A stretch of 64,000 nucleotides of DNA, from the IMG/VR virus record IMGVR_UViG_3300042465_005116, positions 1 to 64,000 of that record. One strand, written 5' to 3'. The notes beneath the pieces are model-generated. The model saw nothing but the letters and a program-made list of their open reading frames with translations. It was not told the origin of the DNA and ran no database searches. This DNA is from a virus. Lineage: Duplodnaviria; Caudoviricetes. Below are positions 10,201 through 42,763 of this stretch, piece by piece; position 1 is the stretch's first letter, and every line of letters starts with the position of its first letter. Made by a program: the position numbers and the translations under genes.

Positions 10201-11106
10201 ATCAATCGAACCAGTATAAATTGCAAGAGTACTATTTTTAGTATCTTGTGATTGTGTATAAGAATTTAATGATGATGTTGCAGATAAAATTGATGCGGTT
10301 ACATTTAATAATGTTTCCCATTTAGTATCAATTGAAGCCGTATAATTTGCAAGAGTACTATTTTTAGTATCTTGTGATTGCGTATAAGAATTTAATGAAG
10401 CAGTTGCAGATAAAATTGATGCGGTTACATTTAATAATGTTTCCCATTTAGTATCAATTGAAGCCGTATAAAGTTCTAAACTTGCAGTATAATTTCCTAA
10501 AGTTGAATTTTTAGTATCTTGTGAAGATGTGTAAGAATTTAGTGATGCGGTTGCTGATAAAATCGATGAGGTTACATTTAATAATGTTTCCCATTTAGTA
10601 TCAATTGAACCAGTATAATTTGCTAAAGTTAAATTTTTATCATTAATACTTCCAGTATAAGTTGCAAATGATGTATTGGATGATGATAAAATACCACTTC
10701 CTGGTACGGATATATTATCTATTGATGCAGAAACTGCATATAAATTTTTCCATTTACGAGTATCACTACCTAAATCGTATTGATTTGATGCAGAAGGTAT
10801 TAATGAACCACTCACTTGTGCAGTAACGATTATATTATCACTACCACTATCACCTAAATAAATATTTCCACTTAATCTTACATCTCTTGCGGTTAAATCA
10901 CCACTTAAAAGGATATTAGAAGCAGAAATATCACCAACTAAATTTATGTTACCATATGCGGGTGCACCTAATGGTAATAATGTATATGTACTTGAACCAC
11001 TTCCAAATTGGATTGAACCCGAACTTTGATGTAAATATAATTCACTCTCATCTAATGATGGAGATGCATTAGATGTACCTCTTCGTAATTGTAATATTGC
11101 AGCCAT
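7219..11106 (-). CDS. Long tail fibre protein with coiled-coil repeats and a C-terminal S74-like chaperone
   Basis: 1295 aa; SDIRLKNNI...GVIAQEIEE...YKAVKYDKLV at the C-terminus; 42-aa repeats. Confidence 0.85.
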   Translation of the reverse strand: MAAILQLRRGTSNASPSLDESELYLHQSSGSIQFGSGSSTYTLLPLGAPAYGNINLVGDISASNILLSGDLTARDVRLSGNIYLGDSGSDNIIVTAQVSGSLIPSASNQYDLGSDTRKWKNLYAVSASIDNISVPGSGILSSSNTSFATYTGSINDKNLTLANYTGSIDTKWETLLNVTSSILSATASLNSYTSSQDTKNSTLGNYTASLELYTASIDTKWETLLNVTASILSATASLNSYTQSQDTKNSTLANYTASIDTKWETLLNVTASILSATSSLNSYTQSQDTKNSTLAIYTGSIDTKWETLLNVTSSILSATASLNSYTQSQDTKNSTLGIYTESVNGRLNNLELKSSSVDDTLWSQSIKNSTLAIYTASIDTKWETLLNVTASVLSYTQSLKNAIELTGSSVTILGNLVVKGTQTTLDSNTIQLGDNIIELNGTGAANGGLLVKDPTAVSTISGSLLWDSVNDYWKSGKLGAESKILLAEGDSVVSGSSQIDLTSTTNYVSGIKTRLNVEGVISSSIQINLNDVTNFSTYSQSVDDRIKSLNSYTSSQDTKNSTLGNYTASIDLDLARIHESTSSLNSYTSSQDTKNLTLGNYTSSLDTKNLTLQNLTGSFATTGSNTFKGEQIISSSLIVTNEIKGIGNIFLQPDVNDARYFQIYNTAAPSGNDIHFKGNTDFNYFGDDTNYLKIDDSAQTVSIVGVNGVFVGSSLNVTGAVSASAGFTGSIIGEINATNGVVSGSSQVVYTSLSSIPAGIVSGSSQIPSLLPTGVVSGSQQLTGSYDLRYAPSASFATLLGANPLVSLGSAAFYNVTSSVDVVLVSGSINYTNNHLLTAGATKKYIDWRTEELLAAAAVADILSVSAGDGLGGGGLSGDVTLTLNTGSTHFTNGVDARLIPLTSLNSYTSSQDTKNSTLAIYTASIDSHISNLNSATSSYETNGRGIVSGSSQIFGGSGLVSGSSQITYANISSIPAGIVSGSSQIIYADISSIPAGIISGSSQLSGTTITDLTIVNLTTISETASVIFSSGSNRFGDFGNDTHEFTGSVQITGSLTTIGDVIATSFNGVINATNGVISGSSQLTATLPSGVVSGSSQIILLLPSGVVSGSSQVDADSITNFDSNVKAKLDVDGVISGSSQVTRTLQQITDTGASTTNAITISNATASTDKTTGAFIVTGGIGVSGGINAGGDIVAFASSDIRLKNNIKPIESPLEKISKINGCEFEWNDELQSIYSGKDYGVIAQEIEEVFPELVQTRENGYKAVKYDKLVSVLIEGIKELTKQVEYLKTKIEN
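9950..10640. repeat. Five copies of a 126-bp/42-aa unit core (YTASIDTKWETLLNVTASILSATASLNSYTQSQDTKNSTLA)
   Basis: The Trp-codon anchor 'ccca' occurs at 9960, 10191, 10317, 10443 and 10590 (spacings 231, 126, 126, 147). Confidence 0.9.
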
Positions 11107-11133
11107 TAATTGAAATTTCCTATTTTATTTCCT

Positions 11134-11141
11134 ATAAATAT
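11134..11141 (-). promoter_or_regulatory. Putative late promoter motif
   Basis: ATATTTAT 27 nt before the ATG at 11106. A second copy, ATACTTAT, is at 11189-11196. Confidence 0.5.
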
Positions 11142-23382: not shown

Positions 23383-25023
23383 CTAGATTGAAGCCAAATC
23401 TTTAACATAAATCTTACCATAGAATTCTGGACGGACCATCTTCTTAGCGTAACGAGTCATAACACCACGACGAGGCGTGAAGTTAGATGGGTCGTACACT
23501 AATGGAGTCATAATCAATGGTACATATGGAGCATAAACCGCACCAGTCTCAAGGAAGTTACTTCCTTTGAATCCTAATAAGATTTCGTTAGAAGTCATAT
23601 AAGGGTTCTTGTAAACTGTGTAACGAGATGCCAAAGAACCTACTTGAGATACACCAGCTGCGAAAGATGTAGCATCTTTATCCGCGTTAACTGAGAAACC
23701 AGGAATTGATTCTAAGATAGTACAAACATCTGGAGATGCAACGATGAAGTTAGCACCACCACGAAGAGTTAATTGATGAATCTTGTTAGAAACTTTGTTC
23801 AATTTAACACCTAATGTTTGGAACCATGTATTTTTTTGGTAAGCCAATGAATTGTTACCTGCTGACCAACTACCATCTTGAGAGTTAAACTCTTCACCAA
23901 TTGTTGCTGACCAATATTCAGTTGTTAACGCGTTAGACTTTAACATATCTAAGATTTCTAAGTCAATCTCTAAAGAGATATACTCAGATAACATAGAAGT
24001 TAATTCAGCCTCAGCATCGATTGAATGGTATGCATTCAAATCTTGTGCCAATTCCGGTGTCCATACTGCTTTCAACTTACGAGTCTTAGCAACGATTGCC
24101 TCAGAACGTAATTCTAAGTCAACTTCAGGAATACCTAAATCAGATGCTGGTTCAGAGATACCACCTGCTTGTGTACCATCTTCGAAATCACCACGTGTGT
24201 TTGAAGTTGGAGCTTTTGAATACTGAACTTCTAAAGATTTTACAGCACTTGCAGATGTTACTTTACCATAGAATACGATATTTGAACCTGAAATTCTTGT
24301 TTGACCAGGATAGTATAAATCAGCTGCTGAAAAAGCAGGTGATTGAACTGCAAATGAACGTACTGCTTCTACATCTAAACTTGGTAATTCTGATGTTGCA
24401 GTAACGAATCTTTTAAGAGTACCAGCTGCTACTGAAGCAGATAAAGCTGCATCGTATCCAACTTCTTGCCAGTTTGCAGAACCAGTTGTTACAGCAGATG
24501 CTGCAATTGATTCACTAACATTGTTAACTGTGTATCCGTAACGTCCTTCACCATAAAGACCGTTTACAGCTGATTTAGTTCTACCATATTCAGAATCAAA
24601 TGTTGAAGTACCATTACCACCGAAAAGTGATTTACCTGCGTTAGCAGCATTGAATGCTGGGTTACCATTTACACTTGTTCCGTATTTGAAATCTAGATAG
24701 AATATAAGACCTGAAGGTAAGTTCATTGGTTGAACTGAAACGAATTCTTTCGCTGCAATTTCACCAAAGATTCTTCTTACTAATGGTAAAGCTACGCCAG
24801 ACCATTCTTCAGAACCTGCTGAAGTACCAGTTGCGGTAGCTTCATCCAATAATTGTTTCGCTTGGTTCTCTAATAGAACTGCGATTTGAGATTGCTCTCT
24901 TTCTTTTAAACCTTCTAAAAGACCAGTTGCTTCCCATTTGCTTTTCAATTGACGTGTTTCAGCCAACATTACCGCTTGTGGGTTCTTGCCTTCCATAAGT
25001 TTAGATAAATTAAAATTTGCCAT
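23383..25023 (-). CDS. gp23: Major capsid protein (T4 gp23-like)
   Basis: VQPMNLPSGLIFYL, IVAKTRKLKAVWTPELAQDLNAYH, YAPYVPL and PRRGVMTRYA motifs. Confidence 0.97.
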   Translation of the reverse strand: MANFNLSKLMEGKNPQAVMLAETRQLKSKWEATGLLEGLKEREQSQIAVLLENQAKQLLDEATATGTSAGSEEWSGVALPLVRRIFGEIAAKEFVSVQPMNLPSGLIFYLDFKYGTSVNGNPAFNAANAGKSLFGGNGTSTFDSEYGRTKSAVNGLYGEGRYGYTVNNVSESIAASAVTTGSANWQEVGYDAALSASVAAGTLKRFVTATSELPSLDVEAVRSFAVQSPAFSAADLYYPGQTRISGSNIVFYGKVTSASAVKSLEVQYSKAPTSNTRGDFEDGTQAGGISEPASDLGIPEVDLELRSEAIVAKTRKLKAVWTPELAQDLNAYHSIDAEAELTSMLSEYISLEIDLEILDMLKSNALTTEYWSATIGEEFNSQDGSWSAGNNSLAYQKNTWFQTLGVKLNKVSNKIHQLTLRGGANFIVASPDVCTILESIPGFSVNADKDATSFAAGVSQVGSLASRYTVYKNPYMTSNEILLGFKGSNFLETGAVYAPYVPLIMTPLVYDPSNFTPRRGVMTRYAKKMVRPEFYGKIYVKDLASI

Positions 25024-26371: not shown

Positions 26372-26674
26372 TTAATCTCTTGAGGTGTCTTTATCTGATT
26401 GAGGTGTTTTTTTACTAACTTTCTTTTTCTTTTTAGTAAAAAACCTAATCGTTCTATCACCATCTGCAATCTTACTGAGAGCAACTCTTTTTTGCTCTTC
26501 TCTGATTGCCTTTTGTTTTTGTAATCTTCTTTTTGTAGTAGGTTTAACGTATTCCTTTCTTTCTCTTAGTTCTAAGAGGTGTCCAGATTCCATAACCTTT
26601 TTTTTGAATTTTTTTAAAGCCTTTGCAATGTCTCCATTACGAACTTCGACTGTAATCCTTGCTAATCCGCTCAT
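26372..26674 (-). CDS. rpsU: Phage-encoded ribosomal protein bS21 with a basic C-terminal extension
   Basis: ITVEVRNGDIAKALKKFKKKV...LELRERKEYVKPTTKRR is the bS21 signature. Location in the head module matches described bS21 phages. Confidence 0.92.
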   Translation of the reverse strand: MSGLARITVEVRNGDIAKALKKFKKKVMESGHLLELRERKEYVKPTTKRRLQKQKAIREEQKRVALSKIADGDRTIRFFTKKKKKVSKKTPQSDKDTSRD

Positions 26675-26731: not shown

Positions 26732-28291
26732 TTATTTGCTTAAAAGGAACAATGCTTCTTCAGCTTCTTGTTGATTTTTAATCTTTGGGTCTTTATACAT
26801 ATCTACTTTATATCCTCTTAACGCATTTGATAAGAATATCATATACTTAGGATGTCCTAATTTTTCTTCTAATGTAGAAAGTGAATCATAGAATGATTGT
26901 TCATTTCCTTTATTCATTTTTTCTGCTGCTTTGAATTCTTCTTTATGTTTATCAATATATGATGCAGTTGAATCTTTATATCCATATGCTGCTTCTTTAT
27001 TTATTTTTTTACCTGCAGCCACTGCATCTTTATATGCATCCGAATTTTTATGTGCCGGTGCTTCGCCTCTAGCTTTTTTAGCTCGGATATTTGCCCAAAG
27101 ACCAGGTTTTTCTTCTTTTATAGATTCTTTGAATAGATTTGTAATTATTCCACCTGAAACGTAATCAGGTAACATTTTTTCTAAATCTTTATGGGATACT
27201 TTACCCATTTTTTCAACTTTATCTGCGAAAGCCTTAGTTGATTGATTTTTTCTCATTTTATTTGCAATGAGTTTTGCATCAACTTTTTTATCAGAAACTT
27301 CTTCGTTTACGGATTCTGTTTCTAATTCATTTGCAGGTACTTCAATTGAATAGTATTGGCCAATATCTACGATATAAAATGGAGAACCGGGTGTTTTACC
27401 ATCAAAACGAACAATTTTACCAGATTTACCGCCACGAAGTTTTACTTTTGTTCCTGGTTTTAAAATTGGTTTTGCTTCTTCGTTTACTTTACCACAATCA
27501 ACACAATTAGTTTTAGATTCTTCTAATGGCCATTGTTTCAACCACTTTAACCACTCTTTAGTATTCCAATCGTTTCTTTGTCTTGCATCTACTTTCCAGT
27601 ATTTTGCAAATACATCTTTTAATTCTGATTTGTAATTAGCAAAACCGGGTATTTTAGATGTAATGTTTACAAATTCATTTGCACTAGCGTAATGTTCCAT
27701 TGAGTTAGATAACATATCTACTAATGCTAACATTGCTTTATCATTACCTAACGCTTCGTTTACTGATTCATTCTTTGGAACACAATTAGGAACTTGAGCA
27801 CCACCTTTACCTGGTTTCATTCCTATCATCTCATATCCTTTCCAACATGGGTCTTTCTCCCCACCTTGTAATTTACCATCTTCTCTCAATCCCAAACGTT
27901 CTCTCATTTGTTCTTCAGAAATTTCACCAATTTTATAGTAACGAGATAGGATATGTCCCATATCTTCGTATAATCCATGTAATCTTTGGTCTAAGTTCTT
28001 TGCTTCTATTGCAACTTGGTCGAATGATTTACCTAATTTGGTTAATTCATTCATATTACGTTTAACAGTATGTGCATCAAACCAATCATCTGCTTCGTTT
28101 ACCGCCAATTCTCTAGCTGCATCGGTAATGCCACCTAAAGTTTCTGCTATCTCAGTAATATCTGATTTTCTATCCATCATTTCTTGATACTTGTTGTATG
28201 TAGAAACGATTTCTAAGAAATGTTTTTTTACTTCGTTAGAAAATCTTTTTGGTTCTTCACCTTCTTTAACTATCTTTGATAAACGTATCAT
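26732..28291 (-). CDS. Modular head-associated protein (putative cleavable polyprotein)
   Basis: MIRLSKIVKE leader; domains separated by ESVNEA, KVNEE, ESVNEE, ESIKEE and INKEA; includes CWKGY..VPNCVP, KOW-like and GLWANIRAK modules. Confidence 0.75.
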   Translation of the reverse strand: MIRLSKIVKEGEEPKRFSNEVKKHFLEIVSTYNKYQEMMDRKSDITEIAETLGGITDAARELAVNEADDWFDAHTVKRNMNELTKLGKSFDQVAIEAKNLDQRLHGLYEDMGHILSRYYKIGEISEEQMRERLGLREDGKLQGGEKDPCWKGYEMIGMKPGKGGAQVPNCVPKNESVNEALGNDKAMLALVDMLSNSMEHYASANEFVNITSKIPGFANYKSELKDVFAKYWKVDARQRNDWNTKEWLKWLKQWPLEESKTNCVDCGKVNEEAKPILKPGTKVKLRGGKSGKIVRFDGKTPGSPFYIVDIGQYYSIEVPANELETESVNEEVSDKKVDAKLIANKMRKNQSTKAFADKVEKMGKVSHKDLEKMLPDYVSGGIITNLFKESIKEEKPGLWANIRAKKARGEAPAHKNSDAYKDAVAAGKKINKEAAYGYKDSTASYIDKHKEEFKAAEKMNKGNEQSFYDSLSTLEEKLGHPKYMIFLSNALRGYKVDMYKDPKIKNQQEAEEALFLLSK

Positions 28292-28301
28292 TTATTATCT
28301 C

Positions 28302-29573
28302 CTATTTTACTAATTTTGCTAATTTTATTGATTCTGATTTAAATGGATTAAATAATCCTCTATTATTTACTTCCTTTTCAGTAGATGGTGCAACTTTTGC
28401 ATTTTGTTGGTGTTTGTTCTTTATTGGATTATATTTTTCCAATTCATCAACATTAACATTACCATCTGCATCGGTCTTAACCTCACCCGATTTATCATCA
28501 CCCATTCTTACAATACCAACTGTCTTAGTTCTTTTGTTATAAACTAAATCATCTTTTTTGAATTTACCTTCCTTTACCATTTTAGTTAAAGAAATTCTAC
28601 CTTCATTCTTTTTAACTGGCTCATATCCCCTGTCAACTTTATCTTTTTTCTTAGCATCAGAGTCTTGTACACCCGGTTCATTTGGTTCATTATCATCAAA
28701 ATCTATTGTATCCTTTTCAGCAGGAGTTCCCATTTGTTTACCATACATAGATGTAACATGATGTTGATTAAAATCTTGTTCTGCTTCACTATCTTCAGTA
28801 TTAGAAAGACCTGTATTAAAATGTTTAGGTTCGTCTTCATTAACCATTTTGGTCAAAGAAATTCTACCTTCATTCTTCATATATGGTTTATTATCAAATA
28901 CTGATTGAATTAAATCCGCTTCTTTATGAAATCCATTCATCCTTAATGTAAATGCTATACCATCTGCTGCATCGACTCCGTCCCATCCTGATGCTTGTGA
29001 TACATCCGTACCATAATCATCAATCTCACCAGTTCCGTTCATATAAACCGAACCATCTGCCGAATTCTTACGAATATCATCCATTTTCTCTTTATACTTA
29101 GGGTCTTTGATTGATGGGTATTCAGGTTTCTTTGCAAACTCAGGTTTCCCTTCAATTGCTGCCACTAATTCTCTTGCTTCACTATGGAAGTTTGAATCAG
29201 TTAGTGCAGAAACTGCTGCTTGAAACATTGCTTCTTTATATTTTTCATTACCCAACTTTTGTGGAGTAATTCCTGATTTCTCAGCTAATTTCTTAGCATC
29301 TTTATTTACTTTTGGATTACCTGGTCTTTTCTTTTTAGGTTCTGATGTTGGTGTATCAGCTTTAGGTTCTTCTGCAGGAGTATTAAATATATTTGCAGTT
29401 GGTGTAGATGCCTTTTTAGAAGTATCACCCCCTTTACCATCTGCTTTTGAGTGAGTTCCTGCTTTGATTGCAGAATCTCTACTATCCTTTGATTTGAACA
29501 CCGATGTTTTACCGGTCTTCTTATTAGTAGCAGTAAACGTTTCTTCGTTAAGTAAATTATTTAATTTAATCAT
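28302..29573 (-). CDS. Modular head-associated protein (putative cleavable polyprotein)
   Basis: MIKLNNLLNE leader; internal NEGRISLTKMV(N/K)E twice; ends ESIKLAKLVK. Confidence 0.75.
   Translation of the reverse strand: MIKLNNLLNEETFTATNKKTGKTSVFKSKDSRDSAIKAGTHSKADGKGGDTSKKASTPTANIFNTPAEEPKADTPTSEPKKKRPGNPKVNKDAKKLAEKSGITPQKLGNEKYKEAMFQAAVSALTDSNFHSEARELVAAIEGKPEFAKKPEYPSIKDPKYKEKMDDIRKNSADGSVYMNGTGEIDDYGTDVSQASGWDGVDAADGIAFTLRMNGFHKEADLIQSVFDNKPYMKNEGRISLTKMVNEDEPKHFNTGLSNTEDSEAEQDFNQHHVTSMYGKQMGTPAEKDTIDFDDNEPNEPGVQDSDAKKKDKVDRGYEPVKKNEGRISLTKMVKEGKFKKDDLVYNKRTKTVGIVRMGDDKSGEVKTDADGNVNVDELEKYNPIKNKHQQNAKVAPSTEKEVNNRGLFNPFKSESIKLAKLVK
28576..28877. repeat. Two 35-bp direct repeats encoding KNEGRISLTKMV
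   Basis: 28576-28610 versus 28843-28877, 2 mismatches. Confidence 0.9.
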
Positions 29574-29592
29574 TAGTTGATGTTCCTATATT

Positions 29593-30033
29593 TTAAAATC
29601 CTATTGAGACCGTTTTGTTGTCAAATTCTATCCAACGTATTTTTAGTGAAATTAATAATTTCAAATCACTAACATCCATTCTCCAATTTTTTTCTGCCAT
29701 TTCAATATCAGCGATATTACCATGAATACCATCCCAAATTGTAATAACTTTACCATTAAAGAATTTTAAGAATTGTTGTACTTGTTTTTGTTTAGCAGCA
29801 TCTAATTCTTTTAATTCAATTTCCGATGCTTCTTTAATTACCCTTTTAGTTTCAGTTAATACAGTTTTATGTGTATAAAGGTCTAACTTACCATCGGCTT
29901 TAATCTTAACCTCATAGTTAGTCTTACGAATATCGTTATGACCACCCTTAAAAGGTGTATCACCAACTTCTTTCTTAATACTACCCATTTCTATTTTGTT
30001 ATCTCTTAGATAATCTTGTATTGAAAATGCCAT
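29593..30033 (-). CDS. Hypothetical head-region protein
   Basis: 146 aa; internal VLTE/VIKEA possible cleavage site; AGGA upstream. Confidence 0.65.
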   Translation of the reverse strand: MAFSIQDYLRDNKIEMGSIKKEVGDTPFKGGHNDIRKTNYEVKIKADGKLDLYTHKTVLTETKRVIKEASEIELKELDAAKQKQVQQFLKFFNGKVITIWDGIHGNIADIEMAEKNWRMDVSDLKLLISLKIRWIEFDNKTVSIGF

Positions 30034-30043
30034 ATTGTATCCT

Positions 30044-30643
30044 TTATGCTAATTCAGTAATGATTTCTCTCATAAGGTCTTGTGCCTTACAATACTCACC
30101 ACAAACTATAGCTTGTTCTTTTAATTGTCTATTTACTGATTCGTTCATCGTAACCGGTGTCATAAATGCACCATGTGTAGATGGGTTAGAAACAAAATCC
30201 CAACCAATCAGTTCAAAATCATCACCCACTTTTACTTTACCTTCGCCAATGTTAACTACCGAACCCATACCACGAGAGGAAATACCCAAAAGGATACCTG
30301 CTCTTAATAATTCTTTTAAGATGTTACCGGATGGAGTTGGTAAAATTTCTACTGTCCCACAAAGGTCATCACCTTCCCAATGAATTTCTTTTACGTTATG
30401 TGAAACATTCTTTAAATTGATAATACCAGAATCTGGGTGGTCTAATTCCCCTAATGCACGTCTTTCTTTAATAAGAACTTCGTATTTCTTTGCTTCACGC
30501 ATTAGGATTTCTTTAGGGTATATACGACCATTTTGGTTTTCTGCAACCGCTCTTTGAAGAATACCTTTAACTAAGGTTCTACCACTTGAATCTTCATTCA
30601 ATTTTCCTTCAAATAATGTTGTTTCTATTAATAAATTTTTCAT
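30044..30643 (-). CDS. gp21: Prohead core protease (T4 gp21-like, peptidase S77/U9 type)
   Basis: NQNGRIYP, ALGELDHP (catalytic His), LGISSRGMGS (catalytic Ser) and WDFVSNPS. Start MKNLLIE at 30643 overlaps the upstream TAA (TAATG). Confidence 0.95.
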   Translation of the reverse strand: MKNLLIETTLFEGKLNEDSSGRTLVKGILQRAVAENQNGRIYPKEILMREAKKYEVLIKERRALGELDHPDSGIINLKNVSHNVKEIHWEGDDLCGTVEILPTPSGNILKELLRAGILLGISSRGMGSVVNIGEGKVKVGDDFELIGWDFVSNPSTHGAFMTPVTMNESVNRQLKEQAIVCGEYCKAQDLMREIITELA

Positions 30644-30819
30644 TATGCTCCCCAAGTTTTTCTCTTTTTAAAGAGGTCAAAAAATATTGCAGATACTTCT
30701 CTACGAATGATATCACGAATAAGTTTTTCATCCTCAGTTGTGATTTCTTCTTTGACGATACCCCATTTTACTTTGGTTATCTCTTCGTTAATGATATCTA
30801 ACAATCTTTTTCGTGTCAT
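30643..30819 (-). CDS. Small 58-aa head-region protein missed by the ORF track
   Basis: MTRKRLLDIINEEITKVKWGIVKEEITTEDEKLIRDIIRREVSAIFFDLFKKRKTWGA*. Fills the gap exactly, and its stop overlaps the protease ATG. Confidence 0.75.
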   Translation of the reverse strand: MTRKRLLDIINEEITKVKWGIVKEEITTEDEKLIRDIIRREVSAIFFDLFKKRKTWGA

Positions 30820-30821
30820 TG

Positions 30822-31280
30822 TTATTTTTTCTTTACTGATTCTACTATATGTAGAACAAAATCACCATTACCATTTGATTTTACTACTTTATATTCCTTT
30901 TTCTTACCACCGGAATTAATAGTAATTTTTTCACCCACTTTAAGTGCGTTTTTATCACCAGTTTTTAATATAGCAGGTCCATCGTAATCTTCGTTTACTT
31001 TTTTACCAGCTCTTAAATCTGCTAAATCATCACTACCGATATCACCATCTTTATCAACATCTAATTTCTTTTGACCGCCCACTAATTCTTCATTCTTCTC
31101 GCCCTTACCATTCCATGCTGCATCAATTTTATCAAAGAATGCTTTCTTTTCTTCATCTGACATAGATGGAATTGATTTTCCAGCTTTATCTAATGCTTTT
31201 TGAAAGAATTCCTGATATTCATTTTCTTCAGTCATTACTCCTTTGATGATTTCTTTTAATCTTGTACGTGATATTTTCAT
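30822..31280 (-). CDS. Modular head-associated protein
   Basis: MKISRTRLKEIIKGVMTEE leader; GGQKKLDVDKDGDIGSDDL (EF-hand-like) and a KOW-like module separated by KNEE/VNED. Confidence 0.7.
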   Translation of the reverse strand: MKISRTRLKEIIKGVMTEENEYQEFFQKALDKAGKSIPSMSDEEKKAFFDKIDAAWNGKGEKNEELVGGQKKLDVDKDGDIGSDDLADLRAGKKVNEDYDGPAILKTGDKNALKVGEKITINSGGKKKEYKVVKSNGNGDFVLHIVESVKKK

Positions 31281-32779
31281 TATTTTTCTATCTCCTGTAT
31301 TGTTTTCGCTATGTTGATTAATCGTTCCTTTATCTTATAAATATGTCCGTGCGTTCTTTTCCAAAATGTATCGGAACTCAATTCATTCATAGTCTTAATT
31401 TGATTATACCAACGGAAAAAAGTTTCAACCTCTTTTAATTGATATTTTAATTCTCTCAAACCAGTCGCTAACTTCTTATTAGCATGCATTGATTCATCAT
31501 TTTTTAATTCTAACCAACGATTTACCGGTCTTTGAATTCGTTTTCCCTCTGATAAACTCTCATCCATATGTTCCAAACCATATTTCATAATAGTTTTATC
31601 ATCTAACATCTTACCATTAAGAGTAAACATACGTTTACCTTTATAATAAACTGACCAATTACCTTGTGGGGTTGCATCGACAGTGATATTCTTTAAATCC
31701 TTTATACTTCTATCATTAACTTGAATAGCATCTAAGAATTTTTCTGCTTTAGGGTCTAATGCTTCGTTTACTGATTCATTTGTTGATACAAATAATCTTA
31801 CTGAAAGAATTACATCTTTATCTATATTTAAACTTCTTACTTTATTTTTTTCTAAATCGTAAGCCGGATTGATTGTATTTGCTCTTGCAATTACACCATC
31901 TTTAATAAAATGTGGCTGTAATCCAGAGTAGTTATCATCTCTAAACATAAAAACATCTTTAGGAGAATCCTTAGATATTTTAATTATTTTCTTTAAACCT
32001 TCTTTACCAATAAAGCATCCACCTTCACATTTACTTCCACCATAAGTTTTACCTTTTTGTAATGATGCTTCGTTTACTGATTCAAATAATGCTCTGTCTC
32101 CACTAATATCCTGTTTATCAAAATATGCTATTTTCTTTTTACCTTTTTCTATTTGATATACCTTCCATCCTTTGTTGGTTGGTTCAATTAGTTCTATCTC
32201 AATATTTGGATTATGTTTATGAGTAAGTTTATCTCCTGATTTATTTGCTTCGTTTACTGATTCTTTTAGTTTACTTACATAATCTGCTACAACATCATTA
32301 ACTGTCTTTTGTATCAATTGTAAGTATTTTGGGTCATCTTCGGTTCGTACTCTTACAGCGGTTTTACCCTGTTGTGTTAATTTTAATGCTACCTTTCCAT
32401 TAGCATGTGTTAAATTATAATGCCTAACATCTAATGTATAGTTTTTAAGTTTTTCTGCCATTTTTAAACCAACAGATACATCTGCATGACCTAATTTTTG
32501 TTGTGGTAAACTCGATGCGGGGGTTGTACTAATAATATAATCCGGTGATTTGAATTTTGCTTCATTTACCGATTCATCAATATTATTAATATCATTATTT
32601 ACTAATGTATAACCGAATTGTGTTGCAGTTTTTTTTCTTTTTTTATCAGAATTTTTACCAGAAAAGGCATGAGGAGTATCATAGCCATCAACATTACCTG
32701 TCACATTGGCTTCATCTAATTCATCTTCGACTTCCTTAATAAGTTCGTCTATAAAAGATTTAATATTTTTTTCTGACAT
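31280..32779 (-). CDS. Modular head-associated protein with four ESVNEA-delimited inserts
   Basis: ESVNEA at 32559, 32247, 32067 and 31761, plus ESLSEG near 31550. Confidence 0.8.
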   Translation of the reverse strand: MSEKNIKSFIDELIKEVEDELDEANVTGNVDGYDTPHAFSGKNSDKKRKKTATQFGYTLVNNDINNIDESVNEAKFKSPDYIISTTPASSLPQQKLGHADVSVGLKMAEKLKNYTLDVRHYNLTHANGKVALKLTQQGKTAVRVRTEDDPKYLQLIQKTVNDVVADYVSKLKESVNEANKSGDKLTHKHNPNIEIELIEPTNKGWKVYQIEKGKKKIAYFDKQDISGDRALFESVNEASLQKGKTYGGSKCEGGCFIGKEGLKKIIKISKDSPKDVFMFRDDNYSGLQPHFIKDGVIARANTINPAYDLEKNKVRSLNIDKDVILSVRLFVSTNESVNEALDPKAEKFLDAIQVNDRSIKDLKNITVDATPQGNWSVYYKGKRMFTLNGKMLDDKTIMKYGLEHMDESLSEGKRIQRPVNRWLELKNDESMHANKKLATGLRELKYQLKEVETFFRWYNQIKTMNELSSDTFWKRTHGHIYKIKERLINIAKTIQEIEK

Positions 32780-33629
32780 TGGTTATTTCCTTTATTAATT
32801 CATATGATAGCATCAACGCTGAAACCTGTTCATCCGTAATTTTTTTTCCTATCTTTTGTGTTTTTAAAACATTGATAGTTTCTTTTAATTTAATTTTTGT
32901 GATTTTATCATTAACTTCGGAATGTAATTTGTGAAGTTCAGTTACTACTTTCTTTAATTGTGAATCGTAGTATTCACCGAATTTAGATGTATTATTAACA
33001 TTATTAATAAATTCTCTTAAAAGACCTTTTTGGTCGTCGTTTAAGTTAGTGTATTTACTATTAAATGTTTCAACTAGTATTTTATATGTCAACAATCTCA
33101 AATCCTTTTCTTGATTCTTATATGTTTCCATTAATTTATCTTCAATCTTCTTAATAGATGTTTGGGTTGTAGATACGTGTTCTACTAATGTAATCTTAGC
33201 ATCAAATACATCCTTAACATTAGTTACATCTTGTATCTTTGCTTCAAAAATCTTATGAACCGATGCTAATACTCTATAATTAGAAACAGGAGAAGCAACA
33301 AATTCTTCAATATCGAAATTTTCTTTAATAGCTTTTACTAAGTTATACTTTTCTCTTAATAATTTAGTTTCATCTAATTTAGTACGAGTTTCGATAATAG
33401 CATCAATAAATTTTTCTGCTTTACTTTCTGAATTATATTTTTCAGTTGTAAGTAAATTGAATAAACGCAATTCCTTTGCTAATTCGGTTTTACCACCAAA
33501 AAATTCTTGTACTATTTTTTTAGCCTTCTCAACTGGAGCATTATTTAAAATCTCCAATGTGATTTGACGAGTTAAGAGTTCAAATAAAAACCCTGTATTT
33601 TTAAATTTCGAATGTTTAATTTTTTTCAT
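32760..33629 (-). CDS. Hypothetical head-assembly protein downstream of portal
   Basis: 289-aa helical protein (KHSKFKNTGFLFELLTRQIT) located between portal and protease. Confidence 0.7.
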   Translation of the reverse strand: MKKIKHSKFKNTGFLFELLTRQITLEILNNAPVEKAKKIVQEFFGGKTELAKELRLFNLLTTEKYNSESKAEKFIDAIIETRTKLDETKLLREKYNLVKAIKENFDIEEFVASPVSNYRVLASVHKIFEAKIQDVTNVKDVFDAKITLVEHVSTTQTSIKKIEDKLMETYKNQEKDLRLLTYKILVETFNSKYTNLNDDQKGLLREFINNVNNTSKFGEYYDSQLKKVVTELHKLHSEVNDKITKIKLKETINVLKTQKIGKKITDEQVSALMLSYELIKEITNVRKKY

Positions 33630-37810: not shown

Positions 37811-40800
37811 TTATGCGTAAAAAATACCCAATAATTGATTCAGAGAGGCGAATGCTCCTGTTAATTTGAATGTCTGTCCGTTATATACAAATACAATTCC
37901 TTCGATTGGTACGATTCTTTTAGCACCACCAATTGCATTTAATCTTTTAAGTTCTAATTTTAGTTTATCTATCTTCTTAGGGTCTCCACTTGCCTGAACA
38001 TCCTTTATAGTTTGTTCTAAACGTTTCTTCATATCCCTTAGAGCGGAATCTGGATTAACTGTTAATACCGATGCGGTAAATTCTAATACATCTGCCCCAA
38101 CTCCTAAGAAAATATCTTCAAATTTCATTAAGTTATCTTTTGAAATACCCTTATGGTCTTCTTTATCTATCTTAGTAGCCCATGCAAGAGTTTTTTCATC
38201 CTTAATTGAATTCTTATCAATACGAAATCCCTTTTCGTTAAACGCCCATCTCTTAACTAACCCCATTTTAGTGGCGTTATCTAATGTAGTTGGTGTTTTC
38301 TTATCTACAAAGTTCTCCCACCATGCTTGATGGTAATCGGCAACACCTGCAGTATCTCCTAATCCAAATTCTTTTTGTAATTTAGATATCATAGTAAGAT
38401 ACTTACCTTTCTTAGATGATAGGTCTTGTGATTTTGGTAACTTTAATACCGGTGGCCCTTGTAGTGTATACTTTGATTGAACATCTGCGTTTACTTGTTT
38501 AAGCATTCCACCCAATACTCTACCTGCTTCTGCCGATTCCCCTATTGCATCACCATTCTCATCGTACTCCATTGTTCCGTGAAATACTAATAATGGTTGT
38601 CCGTAAGGAATGACGTTGACTGAGGTAGGATATATCACCTCTATGTTCATAAAACACGAACCATTCTTAAATACCTTATCTTTTTGTGATTGGGATAATG
38701 ATTTTATAGCATTAGATAGGTCTTTCATCGCAAAATTGTAGGCATCAGTTAATTCACCTCTACCCGCAAACTTATCTGCTACTCCGTTGATATCTAACGC
38801 CCCTGCACCTTTGTTTTTCAAATGTGATTTGTTTCTTGCTGCTACTAATCTACCATCTATCCAACTAATTGCTAATGCTTGACCATCGGTTTTCTCTCTA
38901 GCAAATTCTAAGTTACCATCCAATGCACGATTTACAATATCTTTAAGTTGACCAAATGTTAAATTGATTTCAGTATCAAACGGATGATTCATATGTCCAT
39001 ATGCACCACCTTCCATTATTAGGGATTCATTTATTGATTCCGTATTTAAAGATAATAAATCCCAATCTAATTCTTTACTATCAAAATCAATGCCATTACT
39101 ATAAACATCTTTTACTATTACACCTACTTGTTTCATTTGGTTTGCTAAATCCTTAACAACATTTGGTTTCATATTAATAAGACTTACCGAACCTGCACCA
39201 TTATATTCATACCCACTTCCCTCATATTTACGGAAACCTCTTACACTAGTACTATATGATTCTACTTTTTTTATACGATTCTTTTTAAAAATAGCATTTA
39301 TTTCTTTTTTTACAATATTTCTTTCAGCTTCATTTATAGATTCAGTTGTGAATACAGGAGTAGATGATTTGAAATCAGCTTTTCTCATTACCGTCTTAGC
39401 AATCAATCTATTAGCCACTTTAATAAATGCTATATTGATATTTGATACTCTATCTTTAACTACAAACTCTTTATATTGTTTTAGGAACTCTAAAAATTTC
39501 TTTTTGTTTCTAGCCAATCTTTTGAATAATCCTGTTAATTCTGCAGGAGATATTTCTTTACCATTTCGCGGGTCGTTTAACCTTTGAAAGAAATGGTCAG
39601 TTTCTTTTCCTAAATCAACATCAGTTGGATTCATTTGTGAATCGGCATATTTTTCAACCGCATCCATATCGGTTTTTGCCATTTCAACTTTAACTTTTTC
39701 TCTTAATACTGCACTTTGAGATGAATAAAAGTATCTATCAATTAATTTATTTTCTAATTTTTTAAATCCAATATTTTTATGACAATTATGGAATGGATTT
39801 TGTTGTTTCACCAAAAGTATTTGATGTGTTATCTCGTGTAATATTGCCCTTTCTATATCAGTAACCTTACTCAAATCAAAAGTAATATATTCTGGTATAA
39901 ATGTTTTAGTATCAAATGTAGTTGCAGCACCTGCACGACCAACTGAACCAAATTTAATTGCGATGGGTTTTATCTTTAAATCTTTACAAATTTCTTTGTA
40001 GTAATTTACAACACTTTCTTTTTTAACTTCGGTTAATGGTTCGTTAGGTATATCATCAACTTGTACCGCTATTTCCTCTAAATCATCTTGACCTGAATCT
40101 TTTACTTTAAAATTAGCTTTTTTATTATCGTATTTTCTCGAATGTGTTCTTGCCCAATCTGCGTAATTATTAACTGTTCCATCATAGTAATAATTTTCTT
40201 TAATATCACCCTTTTCATCTTTGTTAGAATTAAATGATTCTATTGCAGAAGCCATTACTTCATTTGGTATTTTTGCACTTTCTAATTTCTTACTTATAAT
40301 AGCTATGAATTTTAACATATCTGCATCTGATTCTTCCTCTCCTGCAAATAGTGCTGCTTTACCTGCACCTATTGCTATAGTTTCAACAACTATATGAGGA
40401 ATAAATTCCACCATTAAGTGTTTACCAAAAGCAGCAGCTCCATGTGCCAAACCACCACCAGCCGCACCAAATGTTGCTGCTAATGCAACTTTTTTAGCTA
40501 CACTAATTAAAGCCTTTTTTTCAGAATCAGAAACTTTACCACCACTAAAAAAGTTTTTAACACCACTACCGGCTTCTTTAAACAAATGAACTTCATGTTT
40601 AGCACCATGTTTAATTGCTTCTAATGCACCTTTAGCTTTGTCTTTAACTGCTTCTCCAAAACTTCTTCGTTCTGGTGATTCTCCCTTGTGTACTTTTTGT
40701 ATGAAAAATTGTTTTTCGTCTATACTCCAATTCTTTACACCATCTTTAATTTTTTGAAGAGCCATTGGAGCATTTTTATTTATATCTACCTTTGGAGTAT

Positions 40801-42763
40801 CTCGTGGTGTTTCTTCTTCATCATAGTTAAATTCACCATCGTAATCTAGTATCTTTACAGGTAATTTTTTACCATATGCAGTAAATGACATTAAACGAGT
40901 ATTTCCTGCTAATAAATGCAATTTACCATTCTTATCTCTTAATACTAATGGTGGAGGAACATCACTACCACCTTCAATACCTTTTTCTAATCTATCCCAA
41001 TCTTTACCATATTCATCTGCAAGTTCTTTACCTCTTGCTTTCATCGAATCTTTGCCACCCTCTTCACTTGCCGAAAGAATATCACCAACATCAGTATTAC
41101 TCATGTTTTGTAGTTCTTCAGATGAGATATAAACAGGTTTAGCATCTTTCATTTTTTGAATCATTTCTGATTCATCTTTAAATGCGTTTGGTGCAACTTT
41201 CTTAGTTACATCATTTTCAAAATATTCACCCGTTTCACCTTTATATTCTTCATCACTATAATCTCTGATGGTGGTTACTTTTGCTCTATCATCATCTAAA
41301 ATTTCCCAACCATCTTTTCCACTTGTCCAATCTTCAGCCGGTTCTTTTGTAGGTTCTTGTTTTGGTTCTTCTTTAGGTTGTTTAACACTTTTATCGTGTT
41401 TAAACATATCCGCCCCTTGTACTGCTTGACCAGTTGGTTTAGCTTCACCACCCTTATCATCTCCCCCAATAGGACTATATTTTCCACTATCATCTTTTTT
41501 AAATAGTGGTGCACCTTCTACATCTTTTTTACTTTTTTCTTTGTATTTACCATACCCAACGTGCACGTATTTATCATCTTCGCCATCACTTTCAAATAGT
41601 GAATCTAATAAATCAGAATAATCAGATATTAATTCTGAAATAGAATCTTTTTGTTTTACTTTCTTTTTCAATCGTTTTTCCACCTTTTCAATTTTTTCAA
41701 TATCTTGAGTTACATCAACATCATCGAAACCAAATGGATATGTAGTTGGTTTATTCAAACTTCTAGCGTTGTTTTTTGATTTGATTTTAAATGTTATTTG
41801 GTTTTCATCATCTGCTGCGTAAATTGCATCTGCTTTAGGGAAATCAGTTTGAGTATAACCACCCCTAACAAACCACTCATCACTACTATTAACACCATCA
41901 TCTCCACCCAATACTCTTGCTTTACCTTTTGGTAGGTATCCACCATCTGGTTGTGAATCTTCTCCACCAGAAACTGTTGCTGCTTCTTTAAAAATATTTT
42001 GTTTTGGTATTATTCTAAATGTAGCTACTTTTTTACCATTAATGGTTGGCATTCCATGTTCATCTTTGCCAATTGATTTAACTACTGTTTTTTTATTTTT
42101 AAATTTACCCATTAAAATAGTATCGCCTATTTCAACATCTAATTTAATTTCTTCTTTTATAGATTCACTCAATTTATCCAATTTAAGTGTAATCAATTTA
42201 AATATTTTTTCATCAAACTTTGGATATGCTTTTAAAAATCCTGCTTTCCTTTGTTCTTCATCGCCCTTGCTTAACCAATTTCGTACATTAGTACCGGATA
42301 TTGGGTTTGATTGTGAGGGGGAAACGTATACATAACCTTTATCTTTATATCCTTGTTCTATCTTACCTTTATATTTCTCAAAATACTTTCCACCCAATCT
42401 CATCTCATCTTTTTCACCAACAACACTTATATAACCAGTTGTAGTTTCATCAAAGTTTTTTAAGATTTCAGTTGGTGCATAAGGATTCTTAATCTCAACT
42501 ATTTTGTTTGATGGAATACCAAACATTTTAGTCATGATTATTTTCTTTTCCTTAAAATTAAATGGAGATTGTCTATTATCGGTTTTATTAGATGTTCCAA
42601 TAAACACTTTATCCTTACCAAACTTTTTACAAAGATTTTGATAAGTTGCGTAGTGACCCTTATGAAAAGGCTGGAATCTGCCTGAATATACTACAACAAA
42701 GTTGCGTAATTCAGTTTCTTCTAATAAAATTTGATTGACAAGATATTGACTTAGTTCATTCAT
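37811..42763 (-). CDS. 1650-aa multi-domain protein: HxGH nucleotidyltransferase + ParB/Srx-like + HEXXH metalloprotease-like + ligase-superfamily nucleotidyltransferase
   Basis: SGRFQPFHKGH; VPPPLVL...LAGNTR; ILHEITH (39824-39838); EKTDGQ (38879-38896)...IEV...EGIVF...FKL. ES(I)(N/K)E linkers lie between domains. Confidence 0.75.
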   Translation of the reverse strand: MNELSQYLVNQILLEETELRNFVVVYSGRFQPFHKGHYATYQNLCKKFGKDKVFIGTSNKTDNRQSPFNFKEKKIIMTKMFGIPSNKIVEIKNPYAPTEILKNFDETTTGYISVVGEKDEMRLGGKYFEKYKGKIEQGYKDKGYVYVSPSQSNPISGTNVRNWLSKGDEEQRKAGFLKAYPKFDEKIFKLITLKLDKLSESIKEEIKLDVEIGDTILMGKFKNKKTVVKSIGKDEHGMPTINGKKVATFRIIPKQNIFKEAATVSGGEDSQPDGGYLPKGKARVLGGDDGVNSSDEWFVRGGYTQTDFPKADAIYAADDENQITFKIKSKNNARSLNKPTTYPFGFDDVDVTQDIEKIEKVEKRLKKKVKQKDSISELISDYSDLLDSLFESDGEDDKYVHVGYGKYKEKSKKDVEGAPLFKKDDSGKYSPIGGDDKGGEAKPTGQAVQGADMFKHDKSVKQPKEEPKQEPTKEPAEDWTSGKDGWEILDDDRAKVTTIRDYSDEEYKGETGEYFENDVTKKVAPNAFKDESEMIQKMKDAKPVYISSEELQNMSNTDVGDILSASEEGGKDSMKARGKELADEYGKDWDRLEKGIEGGSDVPPPLVLRDKNGKLHLLAGNTRLMSFTAYGKKLPVKILDYDGEFNYDEEETPRDTPKVDINKNAPMALQKIKDGVKNWSIDEKQFFIQKVHKGESPERRSFGEAVKDKAKGALEAIKHGAKHEVHLFKEAGSGVKNFFSGGKVSDSEKKALISVAKKVALAATFGAAGGGLAHGAAAFGKHLMVEFIPHIVVETIAIGAGKAALFAGEEESDADMLKFIAIISKKLESAKIPNEVMASAIESFNSNKDEKGDIKENYYYDGTVNNYADWARTHSRKYDNKKANFKVKDSGQDDLEEIAVQVDDIPNEPLTEVKKESVVNYYKEICKDLKIKPIAIKFGSVGRAGAATTFDTKTFIPEYITFDLSKVTDIERAILHEITHQILLVKQQNPFHNCHKNIGFKKLENKLIDRYFYSSQSAVLREKVKVEMAKTDMDAVEKYADSQMNPTDVDLGKETDHFFQRLNDPRNGKEISPAELTGLFKRLARNKKKFLEFLKQYKEFVVKDRVSNINIAFIKVANRLIAKTVMRKADFKSSTPVFTTESINEAERNIVKKEINAIFKKNRIKKVESYSTSVRGFRKYEGSGYEYNGAGSVSLINMKPNVVKDLANQMKQVGVIVKDVYSNGIDFDSKELDWDLLSLNTESINESLIMEGGAYGHMNHPFDTEINLTFGQLKDIVNRALDGNLEFAREKTDGQALAISWIDGRLVAARNKSHLKNKGAGALDINGVADKFAGRGELTDAYNFAMKDLSNAIKSLSQSQKDKVFKNGSCFMNIEVIYPTSVNVIPYGQPLLVFHGTMEYDENGDAIGESAEAGRVLGGMLKQVNADVQSKYTLQGPPVLKLPKSQDLSSKKGKYLTMISKLQKEFGLGDTAGVADYHQAWWENFVDKKTPTTLDNATKMGLVKRWAFNEKGFRIDKNSIKDEKTLAWATKIDKEDHKGISKDNLMKFEDIFLGVGADVLEFTASVLTVNPDSALRDMKKRLEQTIKDVQASGDPKKIDKLKLELKRLNAIGGAKRIVPIEGIVFVYNGQTFKLTGAFASLNQLLGIFYA

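Follow-up and report, generated by a model that had tools for sequence, protein, structure and literature searches.

Why would the head genes of a phage encode proteins that are chains of small unrelated domains, and why would the peptide that joins these domains be the same down to its DNA? This question is raised by a 64,000-nucleotide (nt) stretch of the IMG/VR virus record IMGVR_UViG_3300042465_005116 (positions 1 to 64,000; hereafter the window), which has a G+C content of 31% and comes from an uncultured T4-like phage whose DNA is present in many lake-water metagenomes. A T4-type head module is encoded on the minus strand of the window, and genes within this block encode multi-domain proteins of two to eight unrelated modules, joined by linkers of the type ES(V/I)(N/K)E. 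The original prediction, made from the sequence alone, took these proteins for packaged precursors cut by a head protease, and the linker DNA for a microhomology through which modules are gained, lost or swapped in frame. Here we report that modules are inserted, deleted, reordered and moved between genes at 15-20 nt of linker DNA, a conclusion that we regard as practically certain, and we propose, with a probability of roughly 0.7, that the proteins of the cargo genes belong to the prohead core (internal proteins) and have been enlarged into cargo polyproteins in this T4-like phage of lake water.

The proteins in question are listed below (aa, amino acids; an arrow marks a junction or a candidate cut; N and C anchors are the conserved N- and C-terminal parts).

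26732..28291, minus strand: 519-aa polyprotein, with the leader MIRLSKIVKE (aa 1-10), a helical N anchor (11-137), a Cys mini-module CWKGY..VPNCVP (138-179), a module at 180-271, an SH3/KOW-like barrel (272-330), a module at 331-393, the GLWANIRAK module (394-433) and an 86-aa C anchor (434-519)
28302..29573, minus strand: 423-aa protein, with the leader MIKLNNLLNE, the internal leader-like copies NEGRISLTKMVNE↓ and NEGRISLTKMVKE↓, and the C-terminal end ESIKLAKLVK-stop
30822..31280, minus strand: 152-aa two-module protein, with an 18-aa leader-like N-terminus, an anchor (aa 19-97) ending in KKVNE and the 'DYDGPA' module (98-152), which ends in a decayed linker, ESVKKK-stop
31280..32779, minus strand: 499-aa polyprotein, with an N-terminal helix ending in LDE↓A (aa 1-23), an N anchor (24-73), variable modules at 74-177, 178-237 and 238-339, a module at 340-411 and an 88-aa helical C anchor (412-499)
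37811-42763, minus strand: 1650-aa protein, with a cytidylyltransferase-like N-terminus (Pfam), one ESIKE and two ESINE linkers

The 423-aa and 1650-aa proteins (28302-29573 and 37811-42763) belong to the same shuffling set, and the latter also fits the class of polyvalent proteins discussed below.

Linker repeats in the window

As predicted, the 17-mer GCTTCGTTTACTGATTC is exact at 27753, 31761, 32067 and 32247, in two different genes; copies with two mismatches are found at 27300 and 32559, and no match is expected (100 shuffles). The ESIKEE 18-mer, which had likewise been noticed beforehand, is exact at 27110 and 42149, where none is expected either. A repeat search returned six 20-nt copies with spacings of 453, 4008, 306, 180 and 312 nt, of which the last three are the spacings of the ESVNEA linkers within 31280-32779, in agreement with the prediction. 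The 17-20 nt elements thus form a family of six copies within 6 kb, with short conserved DNA flanking each cassette on both sides. At the peptide level, a six-frame scan for ES[VIL][NK]E gave 10 occurrences, all 10 in frame and all in three minus-strand genes, 26732-28291 (519 aa), 31280-32779 (499 aa) and 37811-42763 (1650 aa), compared with 0.12 on average, and never more than 3, when residues were shuffled 2000 times within the 56 long open reading frames (ORFs) of the window. The linkers are as follows.

27110..27127, minus strand: ESIKEE linker, 18-mer identical to that at 42149-42166
27300..27316, minus strand: ESVNEE linker, two mismatches to the 17-mer
27753..27769, minus strand: ESVNEA linker in the 519-aa gene, exact 17-mer
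31761..31777, minus strand: ESVNEA linker, exact 17-mer; joint between modules 238-339 and 340-411 of the 499-aa protein
32067..32083, minus strand: ESVNEA linker, exact 17-mer; breakpoint of an insertion or deletion (indel) in loci L001 and L005
32247..32263, minus strand: ESVNEA linker, exact 17-mer; the joint 31759->32246 shares 18 nt here in metagenome run X17
32559..32575, minus strand: ESVNEA linker with two synonymous differences; breakpoint in all close relatives
42149..42166, minus strand: ESIKEE linker in the 1650-aa multi-enzyme protein (37811-42763)

The original prediction gave ES(V/I)(N/K)E, with A or E as the next residue, for all junctions. This does not apply to GKVNE↓E, KINKE↓A, ESLSE↓G, LRE↓D and MV(N/K)E, at which further homology breakpoints were found, nor to the protein encoded at 30822-31280, whose modules meet at KKVNE↓D and whose end is ESVKKK-stop. 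Tandem duplication of one domain was ruled out, the modules being unrelated to one another.

Exchange of modules among relatives

Relatives were collected in two IMG/VR scans (about 150 loci); their linker-bearing ORFs were cut after ES[VIL][NKDQ]E and the pieces clustered, which gave 86 module families (M0 and so on) from 104 distinct linker-bearing proteins. The peptide QGVAE, looked for as an alternative linker, is absent from these loci. Across these architectures the ends are constant and the interiors phage-specific: in the 499-aa type, the N anchor belongs to family M2 or M8 and the C anchor, of 80-87 aa, to M3; M7 and the 86-aa C anchor M9 are retained in the 519-aa type, and M1 in the 152-aa type. 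Families M0, M10, M13, M16, M19, M27 and M28 each recur at more than one position and in more than one gene. M0 is shared by the 499-aa and 519-aa types, and M13 and M16 by the 519-aa and 152-aa types, in either order.

Five relatives that are 92-97.5% identical to the window over about 20 kb are collinear with it through the terminase, portal, protease, scaffold and capsid genes, and the breaks are confined to the 1650-, 499-, 152-, 423- and 519-aa genes. These breaks lie no more than a few residues from a site of the type hydrophobic-(N/K/S)-E (ESVNE, ESIKE, ESINE, ESLSE, KVNE, INKE or MV(N/K)E); the exceptions are a few in the 1650- and 423-aa proteins, in stretches that are of low complexity or have no such motif. 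Homology blocks shared by the window and relatives stop at linkers, at nt 216, 696, 1008-1020 and 1236-1248 of the 499-aa gene and at positions 516, 972-984 and 1164-1176 of the 519-aa gene; in the 423-aa gene, breakpoints fall at window positions 28833-28869, 28575-28610 and 28308-28334. In the 1650-aa gene, four of the five close relatives lack a module of 104 aa that is flanked in the window by ESINE linkers (39329-39343 and 39026-39040), and more breaks occur at 42159-42164.

Single events can be read directly from the alignments. A clean indel of 492 nt separates the window from L001, and its two flanks overlap by 16 nt of linker sequence. The DYDGPA module, which the window has in its 152-aa gene, is located within a gene of the 519-aa type in L002 (97% nt identity), where the next two modules are in swapped order (95-99.5% identity). 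Contigs of four other lake runs carry joints at these places, among them 31759->32246, in which 18 nt fit both sides, 30987->27477 (14 nt), 32083->32560, 27311->30838 and 28575->28833. Cassette content thus differs among close relatives with breakpoints in the element, and genomes with 96% identity differ by some six module changes. Because all exchanges share one codon phase, recombinants stay in frame and the candidate cleavage site is kept on both sides of a module.

Assembly chimeras were rejected as an explanation because the linker repeat is shorter than the usual assembly k-mers and because identical architectures recur in independent metagenomes (L002, L003 and L004; L076 and L079). 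The IMG/VR relatives and the independent lake metagenomes therefore bear out the predicted variation of module content with breakpoints at the 17-bp repeat; fixed module order with synonymously diverged linkers was also looked for, and the opposite was seen. The comparison with an 'integron-like' array is an analogy: a conserved element flanks variable cassettes, and this element is coding and in frame and is neither an intergenic promoter nor an attC-type site.

Conservation of the linker DNA

The linker had been described as conserved down to synonymous positions, and its codons proved far more uniform than synonymous usage predicts. The 15-mer GAATCAGTAAACGAA accounts for 47% of 113 non-identical ESVNE sites, compared with 3.1% expected from the codon usage of the same loci, and it is found at 44 of 122 distinct junctions when each pair of left and right families is counted once. 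Within linkers, AAC reaches 71% (background, 30%) and GTA 92% (44%), and AGY serine codons, which make up 25% of the background, are absent, while the positions flanking the linker are unconserved. This uniformity argues that the linkers share descent or are homogenised, rather than having arisen repeatedly under selection on the peptide alone. That the identity of the linker DNA is itself selected for is close to an even call, leaning slightly against.

A more tentative proposal, to which we give somewhat less than even odds, is that selection keeps the linker for two purposes, its peptide as a head protease site and its DNA as a microhomology for in-frame module exchange between co-infecting phages. 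In lake T4-like phages, injected proteins would then be organised as cassettes at the protein level, each lineage having linkers of its own.

Modules and internal leaders

The predicted module products are 4-12 kDa and mostly basic, the variable ones having isoelectric points of 8.2-9.9. No Pfam family above threshold was found for the 519-, 499-, 423- and 152-aa proteins, for the pieces from the window or for 20 module representatives from relatives. The PHROG matches of the cargo proteins are families of unknown function only, and the 499-aa protein matches no Pfam or PHROG family. Whole-protein AlphaFold models had a low mean predicted local distance difference test (pLDDT) score (51.5 and 59.4) and were used for domain boundaries only; in the 519-aa model, the pLDDT dips at 134-146, 174-186, 255-272, 326-331 and 394-417 coincide with junctions. 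Foldseek searches with the cargo models gave nothing at E<=0.001 against the PDB and one uncharacterised protein of an uncultured phage (58% identity), and nothing informative, against BFVD. The domain labels of the original prediction are, at best, faintly echoed: residues 275-325 of the 519-aa protein resemble barrels of the Tudor/chromo/KOW type at non-significant values (E>0.02 only), and none of the other labels found a match. The most widespread module, M0 (residues 238-339 of the 499-aa protein; 31763-32068; CEGGC, FMFRDDNYSGLQPHF), scored 0.95 on language-model features against Cho_C/UvrC_M clusters of the ESM Atlas, with low recognition, and a search with hidden Markov models (HMMs) gave no support; we keep this as a lead only.

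The roughly 25-residue Cys motif PCWKGYEMIGMKKKGG.EVPNCVP (window 27755-27880; loci L069-L155) occurs in 52 distinct contexts on very diverse viral contigs: directly after a leader (MIKLQTLLNE↓ESPCWKGY), in free ORFs of 50-84 aa, in tandem and as part of large proteins (1300-1760 aa). The motif appears to be a mobile mini-module.

In the 423-aa gene, a direct repeat of 57 nt (28568-28624 and 28835-28891, 82% identical) corresponds to the two internal leader-like copies, and one lake metagenome contig skips 28575-28833, the segment between them. The end of this protein, ESIKLAKLVK-stop, consists of a linker and a leader remnant and lies directly ahead of the leader MIRLSKIVKE of the next gene. 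Together, the internal leaders and this end suggest a second route, by which leader-cargo genes fuse and split.

Candidate cleavage by the head protease

In T4, gp21 cuts after L/I-x-E, cleaves gp22, gp67 and gp68 into several fragments and is itself processed at its C-terminus, and a 10-residue N-terminal capsid targeting sequence (CTS), which gp21 removes, suffices for packaging; processing is blocked when P1 is Asp (PMC9026906). The features of the window that bear on such processing are the following.

30044..30655, minus strand: T4 gp21-type prohead serine protease (Peptidase_S77; PF03420, E 8.8e-27; phrog_207, 1e-48)
30131..30148, minus strand: protease tail M-N-E↓S-V-N, a probable self-cleavage site that shares 11 nt (TTTACTGATTC, plus strand) with the linker
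24838..24852, minus strand: invariant capsid Q-L-L-D-E↓A, a candidate propeptide cleavage site (QLLDE↓ATATG) near the T4 gp23 cut position

The predicted gp21-type protease in the middle of the block, with NESVN near its C-terminus, was thus confirmed as a Peptidase_S77 protein (30044-30655). It aligns to the T4 gp21 structure 5jbl (E 1.2e-18), with the His of ELDHP and the Ser of ISSRG, which we take to be the catalytic residues, in place. Its tail FMTP(M/L)(N/Q)ES is conserved in about 28 orthologs and aligns with E-I-T-E↓S of T4 gp21. The ESVNE linker fits the T4 gp21 rule L/I-x-E↓, and there are T4-like leaders of about 10 residues that end in hydrophobic-x-Glu, such as MIRLSKIVKE (519 aa), MIKLNNLLNE (423 aa) and MKISRTRLKEIIKGVMTE; the leader pattern M-x-(K/R)-L-x-x-hydrophobic-hydrophobic-(N/K)-E is kept across orthologs.

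In addition, leaders, linkers and gene ends can replace one another. Where the window has ESVNE↓A before module M14, L012 and L027 have the leader MIKLKDLLNE↓, and the module starts at the same residue. Module M0 follows the leader MIKLKDIINE↓ in P0001 and forms a free-standing 104-aa gene in P0005 (MKSLKE↓AF...STNE-stop), an arrangement found on 21 contigs. In the capsid protein, residue 64 (window) aligns to residue 15 of mature T4 gp23*, and the LDE↓A(T/N)xTG of the capsid recurs after the first helix (residue 23) of the 499-aa type. The L/I-x-E fit, the interchange of linkers, leaders and gene ends, the alignment of the protease tail, the pLDDT minima at the junctions and the synteny with T4 core genes together make cleavage by the S77 head protease, and packaging, likely. 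Of the predicted protease-cut and shuffled precursors, then, the evolutionary half stands on breakpoints observed within linkers, and the half that concerns cleavage, packaging and injection is argued from comparison; our literature search found no virion proteome for this phage group.

Head gene block and origin of the polyproteins

The head genes, all on the minus strand, are arranged in the following order.

Large terminase (assigned by position)
Portal (assigned by position)
32760-33629: conserved 289-aa protein, adjoining the portal gene
499-, 152- and 58-aa proteins
30044..30655: Peptidase_S77 prohead protease
146-, 423- and 519-aa proteins
26372-26674: bS21 gene
Acidic scaffold-like protein
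Gp23-family capsid protein (E 9e-77)

The order portal, cargo genes, protease, cargo genes, scaffold and capsid mirrors the T4 order 20-67-68-21-22-23. DNA and protein searches found no close relative among cultured phages; the nearest are Flavobacterium phage vB_FspM_immuto (L156) and Microcystis phage Mel-JY01 (L157), with capsid identities of 52-53%. The host is probably a member of the Bacteroidota. The counterparts of the anchors in these two phages are bare and lie at the following positions.

L157 (Mel-JY01), 9461-9997 and 10673-11137: bare anchors
L156 (immuto), 10454-10675: bare anchor

The Mel-JY01 counterpart of the 499-aa protein has 178 aa, with the N anchor (NVTGNVDGYETPYAF) joined directly to a helical C-terminal part, and a separate protein of 154 aa corresponds to the N anchor of the 519-aa protein. 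In immuto, a protein of 73 aa represents the N anchor. ESVNE is absent from both phages. Given these bare anchors without ESVNE in cultured relatives, the polyproteins appear to be conserved core proteins that took up inserted cargo in a single lineage. The bare anchors of immuto and Mel-JY01 represent natural 'empty vector' states, and these phages are possible experimental hosts.

Each gene comprises a conserved N-terminal anchor, with or without a T4-like leader, and a conserved C-terminal anchor of about 86 residues; between them stands a variable string of small, mostly basic orphan modules joined at ES(V/I)(N/K)E or a similar hydrophobic-(N/K)-E site. In the proposed scheme, leaders and anchors would direct the precursor to the scaffolding core, the gp21-type serine protease encoded next to these genes would cut after the Glu of each linker, and the modules would be released inside the head, as with the T4 internal proteins and gp67/gp68.

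Weighing the explanations

Several points weigh against this explanation. The 499-aa protein has no 10-residue leader, its N-terminus being instead a 23-residue helix ending in LDE↓A. The conserved Glu-Ser of the linker (P5-P4) has no counterpart in the T4 rule, and either Glu could be P1. The hydrophobic-x-E motif is short and common in a proteome rich in Lys, Asn and Glu, and the capsid site can be placed only to about 10 residues, the likewise invariant LLE52 being as possible as LDE61. Pfam and HMM searches recognised no function for any module. Furthermore, the uniform codons could be a by-product of frequent copying and not a sign of selection for recombination.

The unexplained Glu-Ser also fits a different account, in which the linkers stay uncleaved and join stable beads-on-a-string head or core proteins, ESVNE serving as a connector or a binding motif (for example, for the scaffold) as well as a recombination site. 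Some packaged multidomain proteins do remain unprocessed, such as the N4 virion RNA polymerase (PMC5512222). We nevertheless consider this account unlikely: the same modules exist as separate genes whose ends match the proposed cuts (a start after leader-E↓ and an end at ...NE-stop), which would be hard to explain if covalent linkage mattered, and the protease tail itself carries the motif. Cleavage by another enzyme, either a putative HExxH metallopeptidase-like segment of the 1650-aa protein or a host enzyme, acting after injection or before packaging, would agree with the processing by embedded zincin-like peptidases predicted for polyvalent proteins (PMC5512222) and with the presence of the same linkers in the 1650-aa protein. 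It appears less probable still, as the site fits the Glu-specific rule of S77 proteases, the conserved tail of the S77 protease has the motif at the position of ITE↓S in T4 gp21, and hydrophobic-x-E leaders replace linkers before the same modules, which is the gp21/CTS pattern of T4.

The DNA evidence could also be read as the mark of an element that acts as DNA or RNA, such as a sequence recognised by a site-specific recombinase or by a homing enzyme, or a signal for RNA processing or translation, the peptide being secondary; one 15-mer is used 15 times above the codon-usage prediction, and AGY serine codons are absent. We regard this as very improbable. Variants that keep the peptide pattern with different DNA (ESIKE, encoded by GAATCTATAAAAGAA; ESINE, KVNE, INKE and ESLSE) are breakpoints as well, the linker sequence is not palindromic, and no dedicated recombinase was seen beside the block, although the window was not scanned for one. 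A 2A-like ribosome-skipping peptide was rejected, the linker being unlike the 2A consensus. Shuffled core proteins that the S77 protease would cut into cargo thus remain our preferred explanation.

Comparison with known systems

The arrangement has features of the internal proteins of T4, of polyvalent proteins and of modular shuffling through linkers, all of which are known. Like the T4 internal proteins (IPI, IPII, IPIII and Alt) and gp67/gp68, the cargo genes have a gp21-type (S77) protease in the same neighbourhood and leaders of about 10 residues ending in hydrophobic-x-Glu, with candidate cuts after Glu, and they encode cargo that is small, often basic, mutually unrelated and highly variable between related phages. 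The cargo genes occupy the syntenic position of T4 genes 67 and 68. Pfam and PHROG gave no homology of the four proteins to T4 IPI-III, Alt, gp67 or gp68, so that the relation is one of analogy and synteny. Whereas each gene for a T4 internal protein has its own leader, the cargo described here is joined in frame into polyproteins by internal linkers. The linker is constant as a pentapeptide and as DNA, and its processing, like the packaging of the cargo, is a proposal.

Polyvalent proteins, described by Iyer, Burroughs, Anand, de Souza and Aravind in 2017, are predicted to be packaged, delivered and released by proteolysis (PMC5512222). They likewise combine unrelated domains in one polypeptide among virion genes, with very variable architectures. 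By contrast, Pfam recognised neither effector domains (ParB-like, MPTase, ART or nucleases) nor an embedded peptidase in the 519-, 499-, 423- and 152-aa proteins, and release is here proposed to occur in trans, by the head protease at a repeated site that is also the recombination point.

The promoter/stem-loop (PeSL) cassettes and the elements of T-even internal-protein loci have already been compared with integrons by their authors (PMC2839356). As in the window, short conserved flanks are sites of insertion, deletion and replacement between very close relatives; PeSLs, however, are intergenic and regulatory and flank whole genes, whereas the present elements are coding, 15-20 nt long and in frame, and shuffle domains. 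In giant phages, a diverged gp21 homologue cuts many head proteins after Glu in a three-residue motif, sometimes at several sites per protein (phiKZ gp175 and SPN3US gp245 substrates; PMC10052503). These cuts remove or fragment long propeptides of one mature protein, and neither an array of interchangeable modules nor a DNA-fixed linker was found described for giant phages in the searchable literature. In the same literature we found no precedent for a fixed in-frame linker that is both a candidate protease site and a single-domain recombination point, and a search for the peptide ESVNE gave nothing relevant.

If cleavage and packaging are as proposed, the locus represents a natural design that loads many small proteins into the head from one gene, in which modules can be swapped singly and neither the reading frame nor the processing site is ever lost. 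This would explain how the injected protein set of large aquatic T4-like phages diversifies much faster than the backbone, and it would make dozens of orphan module families candidate injected effectors against host defences. It would also add an in-frame, intragenic case, mediated by conserved linkers, to the theory of modular phage evolution, and the leader-linker grammar would be ready for multi-cargo delivery in phage engineering. Were the dual-purpose linker also to hold, the orphan modules would constitute a large untapped pool of injected host-takeover or anti-defence proteins.

Neighbouring genes

Two further genes of the block deserve mention. The 289-aa protein (MKKIKHSKFKNTGFLFELL..., 32760-33629), which has neither linkers nor a family assignment, is conserved across this phage, immuto and Mel-JY01. 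The bS21 gene, which encodes a 100-aa ribosomal protein (26372-26674), lies between the 519-aa cargo gene and the scaffold gene, and it is found in the same place in Mel-JY01.

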